Virus genome (UHGV): UHGV-0137073
DNA: 42,824 bases
Source of the DNA: a virus
Strand: one strand, 5' to 3'
Both the position numbers and the translations under genes were made by a program. How positions within the stretch are numbered: the first letter of the stretch is position 1; every line of letters starts with the position of its first letter. Under the pieces are notes generated by a model, which made no database searches, was not told where the DNA came from, and saw only the letters and a list, made by a program, of their open reading frames with translations. This document shows, piece after piece, positions 1 to 37,374 of this stretch.

Positions 1-55
1 ATGGAGCTTAACGTAGTGAGAAGTTCAACCACCTGGTCTGACATCGGGACCACAT

Positions 56-99
56 TGATGCGCCGCGCGATAAATGCACTCTATCTTGTGCGATAAATG
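56..99 (+). repeat. Left terminal repeat of Mu-like element (putative transposase binding boxes)
   Basis: TGAT(56-59)-N9-GATAAATG(69-76)-N15-GATAAATG(92-99); same architecture in inverted orientation at 37063-37106. Confidence 0.65.
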
Positions 100-133
100 G
101 CATCCACGCGGCGTTTCATTATTTGAAAAAGAA

Positions 134-706
134 TTACATTTCAGGTTGCGTTATGACAGTCCCAACAGGGTGGTAGCGGTAGATCGTTGACAGTCCAATA
201 TCATAGATAATTGCCAGCCGCTTTCTGTCATACCCTTTCTGGAGCAATCTTGCGATCTGCTCATGCTGCTCCTTCGTCAGTTTCGGGCGACGTCCTCCAA
301 CTCTTCCTTGTGCTCGCGCAGCAGCCAGTCCTGCCAGCGTGCGCTCAACTATCAGTTCACGCTCCATTTCTGCCAGTGCACCCATCATATGAAAAAAGAA
401 CCTTCCCATCGGAGTGCTGGTATCGATTGAATCCGTCAGACTGCGAAAATTGACACCTTTTGCGCGTAGCTCTTCTGTGAGAGCAATGAGGTGTTTCATT
501 CTTCTACCCAACCGATCCAGCTTCCAGACCACCAATGTATCCCCTCTTTTAAGGCACTTTAAAGCGCGTTTCAGGCCTGGTCGTTCCGACTTGGTTCCGC
601 TCATTTTGTCCTCAAAAATCTGTTCACATCCTGCGCACATTAATGCATTGCGTTGCAAATCTGTGTTTTGGTCATTTGTTGACACACGTATGTAGCCAAT
701 CAGCAT
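134..706 (-). CDS. Serine DNA invertase, Gin/Pin/Cin/Hin family
   Basis: Translation from internal ATG gives MLIGYIRVSTNDQNTDLQRNAL..., near-identical to the Mu Gin N-terminus as recalled; the ORF extends upstream to 835 but the family start is the MLIGY methionine. Confidence 0.9.
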   Translation of the reverse strand: MLIGYIRVSTNDQNTDLQRNALMCAGCEQIFEDKMSGTKSERPGLKRALKCLKRGDTLVVWKLDRLGRRMKHLIALTEELRAKGVNFRSLTDSIDTSTPMGRFFFHMMGALAEMERELIVERTLAGLAAARAQGRVGGRRPKLTKEQHEQIARLLQKGYDRKRLAIIYDIGLSTIYRYHPVGTVITQPEM

Positions 707-760
707 TAAAAATACTCCCTTTTGAGTGGTTAAAGTACTGAGATAATGTGGGGAGGATTT

Positions 761-786
761 GAGAGATAAACGTTGGTTTGGGGGAA
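761..786 (+). promoter_or_regulatory. Invertase crossover site 1 (gix/hix-like 26-bp site)
   Basis: Reverse complement TTCCCCCAAACCAACGTTTATCTCTC resembles hix/gix half-site TTC..AAACC around a central dinucleotide; sits at the 5' end of cassette A. Confidence 0.6.
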
Positions 787-1281
787 GGCTCTGCACTGCC
801 TGTTGGTGTGCCTGTTCCATGGCCCACCGCCACACCGCCAGCAGGCTGGTTAAAGTGCGACGGGCGCGCCTTTACAAAAGAACAATATCCTGTTCTGGCC
901 AGAGTCTACCCGACCCTCCGTCTTCCCGATTTGCGCGGTGAGTTTATCCGTGGATGGGACGACGGGCGCAAAGTTGATACGGGGCGTTCATTGCTAAGTG
1001 GTCAGGCTGCAACATTTATTCGTACAGCTTTGCAGGATTATTACGGTTACGATCTGAATACTAATGTCAAAGTAGGTATCGCTTTTGCTACTGCTGATTC
1101 TGTTATAACCGTTGGAAACCCAGCTAATCCTAAAGCAGGAAATAATAGCGATTATGTTCCTGCATCAGCAGATAACTCTATAACGGGTATTCAAAGGACA
1201 GCGGAGGATAATTTTACCGGGGCATGGATATCAATGCGCCCCCGCAATGTTGCGTTTAATTACATCGTAAGGGCCGCATAA
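778..1281 (+). other. Silent tail-fiber C-terminal cassette A (promoterless alternative receptor-binding segment)
   Basis: First ~68 aa (GEGSALPVGVPVPWPTATPPAGWLKCDGRAFTKEQYPVLARVYPTLRLPDLRGEFIRGWDDGRK) nearly identical to an internal stretch of the expressed tail fiber, then divergent, ending in conserved NYIVRAA. Confidence 0.75.
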
Positions 1282-1300
1282 AAACGTTGGTTTGGGGGAA
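1275..1300 (+). promoter_or_regulatory. Invertase crossover site 2
   Basis: Same conserved half-site as site 1 (..AAACGTTGGTTTGGGGGAA), directly repeated relative to site 1. Confidence 0.6.
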
Positions 1301-1765
1301 GGCTCTGCATTGCCTGTTGGTGTGCCTGTTCCGTGGCCCACCGCCACACCGCCAGCAGGCTGGTTACAGTGCAACGGAGCTACGTTCACCAAAGAACAAT
1401 ATCCTGTTCTGGCCAGAGTCTACCCGACCCTCCGTCTTCCCGATTTACGCGGTGAGTTTATCCGTGGATGGGACGACGGGCGCAAGATTGACGAGGGGCG
1501 TAAGTTGCTTTCATGGCAGAAAGGTACACTGGTCGGCGGTCATGACGATAACGATTCTTCGCTGGATATCTCGTACATGAGTAACGGAAATAATATTGAC
1601 TATGGCGGCGATAAGGTGTTTGCGGGGAATTACTGTAGCGATTATTTGTGGTACGCAATTCTGGGTGGAACAAACAGTCGCGCAAAAGCCGAATTAAACG
1701 GAGCATTCTTTAACATAACCCGCCCCCGCAATATCGCGTTTAACTATATCGTGAGGGCGGCGTGA
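1292..1765 (+). other. Silent tail-fiber C-terminal cassette B
   Basis: Same conserved leader as cassette A and the expressed fiber, different variable middle, conserved C-terminal NYIVRAA. Confidence 0.75.
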
Positions 1766-1771
1766 TACCGT

Positions 1772-35628: not shown

Positions 35629-35998
35629 AGGGCCGGAACTCCTGGTGGAGCTGGCACAGCATACCTCTGAGACCGTTCGCGAGATTATTGATATTGAGCC
35701 CGCAATTGCCGACCAGATTGGTCAGGCCGTCGCGAACCGAATGATGCAGGTCTGGGGCGGGCAAAACGTTTATTTCCCGATGGGCATGGTATGGAAGGTC
35801 AGTCAGCGCGACCGGGAAATCTTCAGGGAGTTTAACGGACGCAACCACCACGAACTGGCCCGCAAGTTTGGTGTTTCGCTTCAGTGGGTCTACAGCGTGG
35901 TTAAGCGGGTCAGAAAAGAAGAACTGGATCGGATGCAGGGCAGGTTGTTTGATGAAGATCTGCCAGAGGAGACGAAAGACGTTAACAAATCCAGATAA
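35600..35998 (+). CDS. mor: Mor/C-family transcriptional activator (middle or late gene activator)
   Basis: 132 aa with C-terminal HTH ...ELARKFGVSLQWVYSVVKR; last gene of the early operon before a terminator. Confidence 0.7.
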   Translation: MSDLNQFRSKGPELLVELAQHTSETVREIIDIEPAIADQIGQAVANRMMQVWGGQNVYFPMGMVWKVSQRDREIFREFNGRNHHELARKFGVSLQWVYSVVKRVRKEELDRMQGRLFDEDLPEETKDVNKSR

Positions 35999-36043
35999 TT
36001 CCTGCTTGTTAAAGTCCTTTCAAAAATCTCCTTATTGTATAAA

Positions 36044-36075
36044 AGCACGGTAGACCCCTTACCGTGCTTTTTTTA
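36044..36075 (+). terminator. Rho-independent terminator after the Mor-family gene
   Basis: agcacggta-loop-taccgtgct followed by TTTTTTT. Confidence 0.75.
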
Positions 36076-36112
36076 TGCTCTCTCTTTAGTATTCAGGATG
36101 CAGGGAGAAAAT

Positions 36113-36745
36113 ATGTTTGACGTTTCGTTGTTAAATCTGCCATGGGCAACACTGGTGACCCTGACCAGTGGCTATATTGGGTATTTTATTGCGAATGTGG
36201 GACTGAAGGATCACCACAAGCCCATTGAGGTGACTTTTTCTTCGCTGATTTTTGGCCTGACAGCAATGATGGCTTACCAGGCTGTTATGTGGGCAGGTCT
36301 GAATGCCTGGCTGGCAACACCACCAGCACTTCTGTGTGCCGTTACATGCGGTGCGTGGTGGCGCAGGTACGGTCGCAAATGGATGTACAGATTACTGTGG
36401 AATAATGATATTTCATGGTCTGACGATACCAGCTCAGCATGGCAGGCAATGTTTGATCAAACAGGCTTCAGCGTTACCGAGGTCAGAGTGATTCTTCGCG
36501 ATGGTTCCGGTATGATGTCACGGCTGCCAGGGAACTTTGAAGAGTGGCCTAACGGTCCGTTTACCCTGGGGAATAAAGGCGATATGGTTCTTTACGTCAC
36601 GCACAGCAGCCCTTCAGGCAGTAACGAATGGGAAGAGTATAAAGGCGTGGTTGATAAGTACTGGGGAGCTCTGGCAACCTATATTCCAGCAGATCAGATT
36701 GCCAGAGTGGAGATCAGGCGCGTTCGTGCAACGAACGATGAATGA
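36113..36745 (+). CDS. Membrane protein of unknown function (moron at the prophage right end)
   Basis: 210 aa, three hydrophobic segments then a soluble C-terminal domain; own AGGGAG Shine-Dalgarno, downstream of the terminator. Confidence 0.5.
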   Translation: MFDVSLLNLPWATLVTLTSGYIGYFIANVGLKDHHKPIEVTFSSLIFGLTAMMAYQAVMWAGLNAWLATPPALLCAVTCGAWWRRYGRKWMYRLLWNNDISWSDDTSSAWQAMFDQTGFSVTEVRVILRDGSGMMSRLPGNFEEWPNGPFTLGNKGDMVLYVTHSSPSGSNEWEEYKGVVDKYWGALATYIPADQIARVEIRRVRATNDE

Positions 36746-36748
36746 TGT

Positions 36749-36910
36749 TTATTTTTTCCCTGGGGCAGGGGCTGCCGGCATAGTGGTTTTATTGGCAGAG
36801 GAAGACGATTCTCCTTTTCTACCGGAATCGCGCTCGAACGTCACGATGTGCTTGCTTTTGGGCTTTTCTGAGTAATCCAGGCTATCATGCTTATTGTTTT
36901 GAGTAGTCAT
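36749..36910 (-). CDS. Small hydrophilic ORF (53 aa), hypothetical
   Basis: AAGGA Shine-Dalgarno ~9 nt before ATG at 36910; below the ORF-track length cutoff; Ser/Lys/Pro-rich. Confidence 0.25.
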   Translation of the reverse strand: MTTQNNKHDSLDYSEKPKSKHIVTFERDSGRKGESSSSANKTTMPAAPAPGKK

Positions 36911-37062
36911 TGGAATCATCCTTTTTGTTGCGGGTCATGTTTCAGCAAACTCGATTCTAAGTTGCCAGGAAGGATGATTTCAATGCCCGACTTATCTATC
37001 GTATAGCGGAAAAGAATTTCAGTTCTGTTCACCAGAACCCATGTTAACCCACTCCAATTCGT

Positions 37063-37106
37063 TATTTATCTCACGGATCCCCCTTCATTTATCTCATGTC
37101 TGATCA
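37063..37106 (-). repeat. Right terminal repeat of Mu-like element (inverted copy of left-end boxes)
   Basis: Reverse complement reads TGATCAGACATGAGATAAATG-N15-GATAAATA with spacing identical to the left end. Confidence 0.65.
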
Positions 37107-37374
37107 CATATCCCTTCAGGTTTGCGGCACTCGGGCAGTTTTTGCTGGTCATCAGGATTGACGTGAAATGCTCCTCTCCGCACTCCTCGGCAACCATCAG
37201 CGCGTCGATTAAGTTTCTGTTTCGCGCCTGCTTACGGATAACCTCGAAGGCTTTCCGGTAGAGCGGAATTGAAAACGCTTCCGGCTCCAGCGTTGCCAGA
37301 ACGTCACTGGCAGCTGGTGTTAATCCACCAATCAGCAGGCCACCGATAACGCTCGCTTCGATATCCTGTCTCAT
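37066..37374 (-). pseudogene. DnaB-like replicative helicase gene, N-terminal fragment truncated by the Mu-like insertion
   Basis: 102 aa with DnaB N-terminal motifs (EASVIGGLL..., [13 protein letters not shown]); ORF ends a few codons after the element boundary at ~37106; full-length DnaB-type helicases are >400 aa. Confidence 0.7.

Follow-up and report, generated by a model that had tools for sequence, protein, structure and literature searches.

The question raised by the UHGV virus genome UHGV-0137073 (42,824 nt, one strand read 5' to 3'; the whole stretch is called the window here) is where the transposable prophage that it carries begins and ends, to which family that prophage belongs, and into which gene it was inserted. 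We compared the window with other copies of the same prophage, which complete E. coli genomes carry at different loci. Homology to these copies starts at position 56 and stops at 37106, delimiting a complete BcepMu-like transposable prophage of 37,051 bp with 5'-TG...CA-3' termini. The same prophage is present in hundreds of complete E. coli genomes at many different loci, including upaG, idi, flgA, emrA, yjjI, yfaL and rstB as well as the yeiE-yeiH and aroA-ycaL intergenic regions. These chromosomal loci are unrelated to one another and the flanking genes differ from copy to copy.

Both ends of the element carry the motif TGA-N10-GATAAAT-N16-GATAAAT, at 56-98 on the plus strand and inverted at 37064-37106 on the minus strand, in agreement with the mirrored terminal blocks described in a first-pass annotation of this DNA. 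In the left terminal repeat, the TGA is followed by box 1 (GATAAAT, 69-75) and box 2 (GATAAAT, 92-98); the right terminal repeat (TGATCAGACATGAGATAAATGAAGGGGGATCCGTGAGATAAAT) is an inverted copy of the left one, and its end is set by the homology limit at 37106. A search of the window yielded only these two matches to the motif, also with one mismatch allowed, compared to none expected from 100 shuffles. Comparison with the ends of related elements, which the first-pass annotation had recommended, revealed that the terminal boxes are conserved there, the Burkholderia phage BcepMu included, and the two-box architecture recurs in the variant right ends of related copies. The GATAAAT boxes within 56-98 are candidate transposase binding sites. 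The same annotation had preferred asymmetric ends, a choice that the homology limits overturn: the ends are symmetric and lie at 56 and 37106.

Five independent simple insertions of the element are each flanked by a target duplication of 6 bp, and not by the 5-bp duplication of a strictly Mu-like element. The duplicated sequences are CATATC at the helicase insertion of a sibling contig, CCGCAC in flgA, GCACAT between yeiE and yeiH, ATTTGT in rstB and GAAGAA between aroA and ycaL. The window retains the right copy of CATATC (37107-37112, helicase nt 263-268) and is without the left copy. CACAT does occur at 51-55 and again at 37105-37109, as had been pointed out, but its proposed role as a 5-bp target duplication does not hold, because the CA at 37105-37106 still belongs to the element, as its final dinucleotide: homology to independent copies ends at 37106.

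To the right of the element lies a truncated DnaB-like helicase ORF (37066-37374, minus strand; Pfam DnaB). The ORF stops after 102 aa, just as the first-pass annotation had stated, and consists of 89 helicase residues followed by 13 codons contributed by the prophage end. When matched to the intact 458-aa gene, helicase nt 1-268 occupy 37107-37374. The adjoining DNA (37371-42824) is the early region of a lambda-like prophage, assigned from Pfam on identical contigs and from the annotation of a relative with an intact helicase. It contains an O-like replication protein (37371-38192, minus strand), cII and cro, cI (39073-39786, plus strand), rexA (39899-40738), rexB (40754-41188) and N (41653-41985). 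A gut-metagenome contig (ERZ922383 k127_10101), 100% identical to the window over the two stretches compared (56-13549 and 27066-42824), carries helicase nt 263-1377 to the left of the element as a 367-aa DnaB_C ORF. Its junctions read ...CCGGCATATC|TGATG... and ...TGATCA|CATATCCCTT, compared to CCGGCATATCCCTT in the intact gene, and the prophage is directly seen there as a simple insertion into the helicase gene, flanked by a perfect duplication of 6 bp, CATATC. The neighbouring genes are reported to be mostly the same in twelve further contigs. The insertion into a lambdoid helicase gene beside an O-like initiator, as originally proposed, is thus upheld by the right flank of the window and by the sibling contig, but not by the left flank of the window, which is not helicase; the two flanks join into an uninterrupted gene in the sibling contig only. 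With its helicase gene split, the lambdoid prophage has probably lost the ability to replicate autonomously. The insertion of one phage into another is an ordinary finding; an element that inserts at random is expected to hit the genes of resident prophages.

The left edge of the window has a different source. Positions 1-55 match intS of 24 complete E. coli genomes at 100% identity and, on the minus strand, correspond to nt 797-851 (residues 267-283) of this gene, the integrase gene of argW-integrated lambdoid prophages; the fragment abuts the left end of the prophage. The same 55 bases gave no match to the intact helicase gene except for a 10-nt chance hit, and helicase is excluded as their source. 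The frame is open from 55 to 1 because these bases are intS coding sequence (VVPMSDQVVELLTTLSS, IntS residues 267-283). It had been taken for a helicase frame running from 37110 through 55 to position 1, and the alignment of 1-55 joined to the helicase, offered as a check on that reading, fails, as the left flank comes from an unrelated locus. A Mu-type insertion with a 5-bp CACAT duplication, an element end at 37104 and helicase continuing through 55-1 is therefore highly improbable. The two CACAT pentamers and the open joined frame speak for it, but the left edge is intS, independent copies end at 37106, a BcepMu-like element makes 6-bp duplications, and the intact helicase proceeds past nt 268 as CCGGAATGG..., a sequence absent from the window. 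We rejected this model on the intS identity of 1-55 and on the junctions of the sibling contig.

Positions 56-37106 are very probably an intact Bcepmuvirus-type prophage that was inserted into the lambdoid helicase gene with a 6-bp stagger, the leftmost 55 bases of the window belonging to some other junction. The window shows only the right junction of the helicase insertion, and the left 55 bases form a separate junction between the prophage end and intS nt 797. This second junction is either the product of a rearrangement or second insertion, or an assembly chimera. In the two argW-integrated lambdoid prophages that we examined, the helicase gene is followed, about 28-30 kb downstream and on the opposite strand, by intS. 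The order found in the window is therefore the one expected after an inversion of the segment between the two genes with the prophage at the joint, provided that intS and the helicase gene belonged to one prophage of the source strain.

A real intS junction would record a second transposition event in the source population, a reading that we hold tentatively and at somewhat less than even confidence. Two routes could have led to such a junction. In the first, the element transposed replicatively within one molecule, from the helicase site into intS of the same prophage, and left the inversion product helicase-5'|prophage|intS-3'; in the second, intS received an insertion of its own, and homologous recombination then took place between the two inverted copies. 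With helicase (+) ... intS (-) as the arrangement in argW prophages, the inversion product would have exactly the order found in the window, and the break falls at the exact prophage terminus (position 56), like a joint made by transposase. A copy of the element with non-matching flanks is also present in the finished genome of E. coli B36, where yfaL ending in ATTCAG lies to the left and ycaL starting with GAAGAA to the right, unlike the ordinary aroA-ycaL insertion, which has GAAGAA on both sides. In addition, a window edge 55 nt past the prophage end would fit a contig that stopped at a branching node of k = 55, and such a stop would need reads across the joint. Against these points, the inversion needs two copies of the element, and short-read contigs would be expected to end at the borders of an exact 37-kb repeat, whereas the window and its sibling contigs extend across both. 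Nor was a reciprocal junction detected: a search for the predicted reciprocal fusion protein, IntS(1-268) plus 12 further residues, was negative.

The joint itself was found in no other public sequence among complete E. coli genomes, GTDB species genomes, JGI metagenomes and IMG/VR, a result that counts against a real junction and in favor of a chimera at the contig end. If so, the true genome would be a simple helicase insertion to which the intS bases were wrongly joined, as could happen in a mixed population or at a junction of low coverage; we consider this conceivable, albeit short of an even chance. The sibling contigs from the human gut carry the 3' part of the helicase at this place and are otherwise 100% identical where compared, and the foreign stretch covers no more than the outermost 55 nt on the left of the window. 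However, the join sits at the precise prophage terminus, the two flanks have no common k-mer able to mislead an assembler, and a de Bruijn assembler would make no junction without spanning reads. We regard it as rather doubtful that the window records an in vivo joint made by the prophage, through intramolecular replicative transposition or recombination between two copies, with about 28 kb between the helicase gene and intS of an argW lambdoid prophage inverted in an E. coli of the human gut. If the intS joint is real, the prophage would be active in the gut and would rearrange other prophages, and an in vivo joint would be direct sequence evidence of active E. coli BcepMu-like prophages scrambling resident gut prophages.

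The element belongs to the BcepMu family, genus Bcepmuvirus, and is not a true Mu; the first-pass annotation had placed it in an uncharacterised Mu-like family, but its kind has already been described and is common. The BcepMu group dates from 2004 (Summer et al. 2004, as summarised in PMC2771037 and PMC2628397). The transposase is 68% identical over 425 aa to BcepMu gp09 and the ATPase 59% identical over its full length to gp08. Both phages have TG...CA termini with the motif TGA-N10-GATAWWT-N16-GATAWWT and boxes at the same spacing, and both carry Gam, GemA and Mor and insert at random, here into many unrelated sites. In both, the early genes with the transposase lie on one strand and the lysis, head and P2-like tail genes on the other, with a repressor at the interface of these divergent clusters (PMC2771037). 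The element differs from BcepMu in its host, E. coli, in having a Gin-like invertase and an invertible tail-fibre segment, which are reported missing in BcepMu (PMC2771037), in its Dam-type methylase and its variable right-end ORF with no Pfam match, and in the absence of the acyltransferase present at the BcepMu end.

The nearest named phage is Escherichia phage PhiKM (PQ738613.1), classified in Bcepmuvirus, with 96.6% identity over 90% of 12200-37106. Chromosomal copies are 97.8-100% identical (e.g. those of ABU 83972, CE10 and the ST131 aroA-ycaL prophage). PhiKM and these copies share the gene order of the element and differ in insertion site, tail-fibre alleles and length of the tape-measure gene. 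In some copies the right end is a variant one (TGAAGGG... or TGATTAG...) and the ORF at 36035-36745 is absent.

Likeness to Mu (Muvirus) extends to the temperate transposable life style, the TG...CA ends, the contractile tail, the Gin-type inversion of tail-fibre genes, and homologues of Gam, GemA, Mor, the Mu F and G head proteins and the DUF935 portal. Mu-type accessory and head genes are thus present, but not MuA/MuB transposition: no similarity of the transposase to MuA was detected (no Mu-specific domain in Pfam, no MuA chain among the PDB hits), and none of the ATPase to MuB among the PDB sequence hits. The element further differs from Mu in its 6-bp, as opposed to 5-bp, target duplication, in an early cluster that is inverted relative to the late cluster, and in having two boxes per end compared to three, Mu ends containing three L and three R sites. 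In Tn552, the transposase has a partner protein that binds ATP, and duplications of 6-7 bp are reported. The BcepMu-type transposase, unlike that of the MuA type, has been assigned to the Tn552/IS1604 type (PMC2771037, PMC2628397). The likeness of our element to Tn552/IS1604 comes from this published assignment, and its transposition module, in contrast to theirs, is part of a complete tailed-phage genome.

By homology to BcepMu, each pair of subterminal boxes is presumably bound by the transposase (29423-31192), which would work together with the AAA+ ATPase (31203-32369) and presumably transposes the element replicatively; the terminal CA-3' ends would be joined to a target cleaved with a 6-bp stagger. 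In the lineage of this strain, the helicase gene of the lambda-like prophage was split by such an insertion at nt 263-268. The prophage is widespread in E. coli and its family has been known since 2004; the importance of the finding beyond annotation is small. Annotation pipelines name the genes of such prophages only generically, and the exact ends (TG at 56, CA at 37106), together with the two-box motif common to BcepMu and the 6-bp duplication, permit their precise delimitation in E. coli genomes.

The gene content claimed at first pass (transposase, ATPase, Gam, GemA, Mor, Mu-type head and contractile tail) was confirmed by Pfam and by the annotation of near-identical copies. The plus-strand early genes include the DDE (rve) transposase of the BcepMu gp09 type (589 aa; Pfam rve only), the AAA+ transposition ATPase of the gp08 type (388 aa, annotated as 'ExeA family'; Pfam AAA_22, 3.6e-20), which is the functional counterpart of MuB, a Mu Gam-like host-nuclease inhibitor (32669-33199; Phage_Mu_Gam, 7.8e-41), GemA (35137-35628, longest ORF; 1.3e-40) and the late-transcription activator Mor (35600-35998; 1.1e-43). 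An HTH_3 repressor-like gene (27509-28000, minus strand; 3e-7) lies at the interface of the divergent clusters, the position of the lysogeny-control region of BcepMu (PMC2771037). From the left, the late cluster (2386-25001, minus strand) encodes tail fibre, P2-type baseplate, tape measure, tube, sheath, a Mu-type head (major capsid, Mu G, Mu F, DUF935 portal and terminase) and a lysis cassette with an SLT transglycosylase and a holin. Next to the left end lies the Gin-like serine recombinase (134-706, minus strand; 190 aa from the ATG; Pfam Resolvase, 1.2e-50, and HTH_7). It is followed by the invertible tail-fibre segment (770-2906), bounded by inverted repeats at 770-1043 and 2633-2906 with a second arm at 1284-1512, all 88-89% complementary. 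ORFs within the segment encode alternative fibre C-termini (778-1281 and 1292-1765) and a tail-fibre assembly gene (1772-2386), and metagenome contigs break inside it, one of them ending at window position 2734.

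We mapped the ends of the element by comparing its left 8 kb and right 4.4 kb with 5,426 complete E. coli genomes. It was present at 98-100% identity in hundreds of them, and almost all of the best matches started at window position 56 and ended at 37106 (position 4107 of the 33000-37374 query). The genes beside the element varied by genome (upaG, idi, flgA, emrA, yjjI, yfaL and others). These common ends and differing flanking genes indicate that, judged by its alignments, the element is a mobile unit that spans 37,051 bp and ends symmetrically in TG...CA. The first-pass annotation had preferred asymmetric ends, with the element stopping at 37104; this is ruled out because homology to the copies in other genomes runs to 37106. 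Its proposal of inverted terminal repeats was borne out. The left repeat lies at 56-98 (plus strand; TGATGCGCCGCGCGATAAATGCACTCTATCTTGTGCGATAAAT) and the right at 37064-37106 (minus strand; reverse complement TGATCAGACATGAGATAAATGAAGGGGGATCCGTGAGATAAAT), and the two-box motif TGA-N10-GATAWWT-N16-GATAWWT matched only these two ends of the 42.8-kb window, even with one mismatch allowed. No matches were expected from 100 shuffles, so the repeats are real rather than a chance occurrence. The exact ends, the 6-bp target duplication described below and an end motif common with BcepMu are useful for annotation.

The right flank (37107-37374, minus strand) corresponds to the first 268 nt of a ‘replicative DNA helicase’ gene 1,377 nt long, which follows an O-like replication gene in lambdoid prophages, as in L001, a locus carrying the intact 458-aa version. 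The truncated helicase ORF (37066-37374, minus strand, 102 aa) and the gene content were as previously described. Public assemblies hold the 102-aa fusion of helicase and prophage sequence in 40 recorded blocks, of which the contigs displayed come from human-gut metagenomes of project PRJNA240307. Past nt 268 the intact helicase reads CCGGAATGGTCGCGG; this sequence was not found in window 55-1, where the best local match was a 10-nt chance match. We reached the far end of the insertion via the tail-fibre protein (2386-3549), on the human-gut metagenome contig ERZ922383 k127_10101 (44,400 nt), whose two fetched stretches match window 56-13549 and 27066-42824 at 100% identity. Left of the prophage, this sibling contig carries helicase nt 263-1377 as a 367-aa DnaB_C ORF. 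Its junctions read ...CCGGCATATC joined to TGATG... and ...TGATCA joined to CATATCCCTT..., and the intact gene reads CCGGCATATCCCTT. By these sequences the sibling contig holds a simple insertion, flanked by CATATC as a perfect duplication of 6 bp; for 12 further contigs the genes alongside were reported to be mostly the same. Support for the element having entered the helicase gene thus comes only through the sibling contig; the left flank of the window itself is intS, not helicase. With the helicase cut into 89 N-terminal residues and the 367-aa C-terminal ORF, the lambdoid prophage should no longer be able to replicate autonomously. A helicase pseudogene is also present in O121 strains; we did not take the O121 matches starting at 37107 as evidence of insertion, since the helicase flank of the query itself begins there.

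The duplication was also 6 bp in four further simple insertions, all from finished genomes: CCGCAC in flgA (strain CU39ES-1), GCACAT between yeiE and yeiH (AST216), ATTTGT in rstB (ABU 83972) and GAAGAA between aroA and ycaL (4/1-1). The earlier proposal of a 5-bp CACAT duplication therefore fails against the 6 bp found in the five insertions examined, and the pair CACAT/CATAT was rejected as a target duplication because the left flank is unrelated to the helicase.

Window 1-55 is 100% identical to intS, the integrase gene next to tRNA-Arg argW, in 24 complete genomes, and 876 genomes match overall. It is antisense to intS and equals intS nt 797-851; its minus-strand translation, VVPMSDQVVELLTTLSS, corresponds to IntS residues 267-283. 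The open frame across window 55-1, which had been taken as a continuation of the helicase, is a coincidence arising from its position within the intS coding frame. No record was found of the small plus-strand ORF at 1-96. A different intS allele (94% identical) occurs on two short contigs from unrelated assemblies, L008 (GCA_012075925.1 AARONE010000097.1; protein P0006) and L009 (Logan SRR35785799_571), whose first bases are intS nt 798 and 797, respectively, at the break nucleotide of the window; this may reflect a hot spot, a mosaic boundary or coincidence. Truncated IntS proteins were screened for what lies to the left of the source contig, and P0005 was rejected as an unrelated truncated integrase, its homology to intS starting at nt 720. 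On a P22-like phage contig (L010, Logan ERR11568904_18665, 5511-5891), an integrase cut to its C-terminal 126 aa, with intS homology likewise from nt 720, sits directly between the early-left genes and an acyltransferase-tailspike module. This truncated form appears common, its protein cluster holding 173 member sequences.

We examined two argW-integrated lambdoid prophages (2013C-4991 and T28R) to consider how the prophage could have become joined to intS. Both have the order dsdC - torI ... cI, cro, cII, replication protein, helicase (plus strand), nin, Q, lysis, virion genes, intS (minus strand), argW, with about 29.6 kb (2013C-4991) or 31.2 kb (T28R) from helicase start to intS start. The 5’ part of the helicase and the 3’ part of intS lie on opposite strands in these prophages and on the same strand in the window, the layout that an inversion between two break points, joined at the prophage, would be expected to produce. 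We consider it quite possible, at somewhat under an even chance, that the intS joint is such a real secondary joint, which could arise by intramolecular replicative transposition or by recombination between two inverted copies. Under inversion, the reciprocal joint would be the prophage right end followed by CCACAT + GAATTTTGCG... (intS 5’ part), and the other would place the prophage left end against the helicase 3’ part. A precedent comes from the finished genome of E. coli B36 (L019, NZ_LR130545.1 1713900-1753500), in which one copy has a truncated yfaL on the left (flank ending ATTCAG) and ycaL-cmk-rpsA on the right (flank starting GAAGAA), without a shared duplication. An ordinary aroA-ycaL insertion (L023) has GAAGAA on both sides, unlike the B36 copy. 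In E. coli K-12 a long distance separates the yfaL and ycaL-cmk-rpsA loci, and the B36 arrangement suggests either that two prophage copies took part in a large rearrangement or that the genome was misassembled.

Against a real two-copy inversion, the window and sibling contigs pass through both prophage ends, whereas short-read assemblers should fail across a 37-kb exact repeat. The intS joint was also absent from every other collection searched: complete E. coli genomes lacked it, and its 27-mer (window 43-69) had no match in GTDB species genomes, JGI metagenomes or IMG/VR. Both helicase junctions were likewise absent from IMG/VR. The predicted reciprocal fusion protein, IntS(1-268) plus 12 residues, gave no 280-aa match, a weak negative as the proteins were clustered at 90% identity. 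The intS bases, at the edge of the window, number exactly 55, as might be seen if the contig had stopped at a branching node with k = 55. At the other edge (42824), examined for a mosaic boundary at a 55-nt offset, the boundaries lay at about 42666 and at 42786-42800. It is also a plausible reading, falling a little below an even chance, that the intS bases are an assembly chimera. The remaining share of probability falls to more complex events.

The element had been assigned to an uncharacterised family, but it is an already known and widespread kind of prophage, a member of Bcepmuvirus. The nearest named phage, Escherichia phage PhiKM, is classified there and is 96.6% identical over 90% of window 12200-37106, followed by Klebsiella phage KP12 and Escherichia phage Phi06_2974 B (85%). 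The 589-aa transposase is 68% identical to BcepMu gp09 (‘Tn552/IS1604 rve transposase’) and the 388-aa ATPase 59% identical to gp08. Pfam matched the transposase by its rve core only and the ATPase as AAA_22, and among solved structures neither protein had a match to MuA or MuB; Gam, GemA and Mor had clear Pfam matches, and the tail genes are P2-like. The early genes (28183-36745, plus strand) lie opposite to the minus-strand lysis, head and tail genes, with the repressor between, matching the published gene organisation of BcepMu-like viruses (PMC2771037), whose transposase is unrelated to MuA and whose termini are TG...CA (PMC2771037, PMC2628397). The BcepMu ends, TGAAGAGAGGTGAGATATTTCCAAGGGAGAACGCGCGATATTT and TGAAGCGCGGCGCGATATTTCAGCACGTCGACGCGCGATAAAT, have boxes positioned as in the window, and two variant right ends in E. 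coli keep the same positions, making the subterminal boxes, on this comparison, good candidate transposase sites. By homology with BcepMu, the transposase would recognise two boxes at each end and, with the ATPase, would insert the element via a 6-bp staggered cut; Mor would then turn on the late cluster.

Window 134-2906 has the anatomy of a Gin-type tail-fibre inversion system, reported absent from BcepMu (PMC2771037). It comprises a serine recombinase (134-706, minus strand), inverted repeats (770-1043 and 2633-2906, with a further arm at 1284-1512) and, at 778-1281 and 1292-1765, a pair of alternative fibre C-termini that are silent. Breaks in metagenome contigs fall within this segment, with one contig ending at window 2734, which fits the presence of both orientations in the population. 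The tail-fibre ORF is on record as a 387-aa version with an ATG start; no record was found of the 389-aa version with a TTG start. A block at 739-770 (TGAGATAATGTGGGGAGGATTTGAGAGATAAA), with the invertase gene on one side and the invertible segment on the other, resembles the two-box right-end motif, being 72% complementary to 37065-37096 with equal box spacing; it may be a transposase site inside the element or a chance resemblance. It is unchanged in five close relatives, which are too alike for conservation to inform.

Between Mor and the right end, an ORF of 210-236 aa without a Pfam match (36035-36745, plus strand) is present in the ABU 83972 and CU39ES-1 copies and absent from the aroA-ycaL variant, where the right end comes within about 160 nt after Mor; cargo thus varies at this position beside the end. 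A DNA adenine methylase gene (26628-27392, plus strand; Pfam MethyltransfD12 on an identical contig), between the late cluster and the repressor, was conserved in all copies inspected. The early region of the interrupted lambdoid prophage is lambda-type (cI, rexA, rexB, N, cro, cII, O). Its cI (237 aa), rexA (279 aa) and rexB (144 aa) products, encoded at 39073-41188 (plus strand) and followed by N (41653-41985), have the lengths of phage lambda’s own proteins. This region is joined with a non-lambda module of an O-like replication protein and a DnaB-like helicase.
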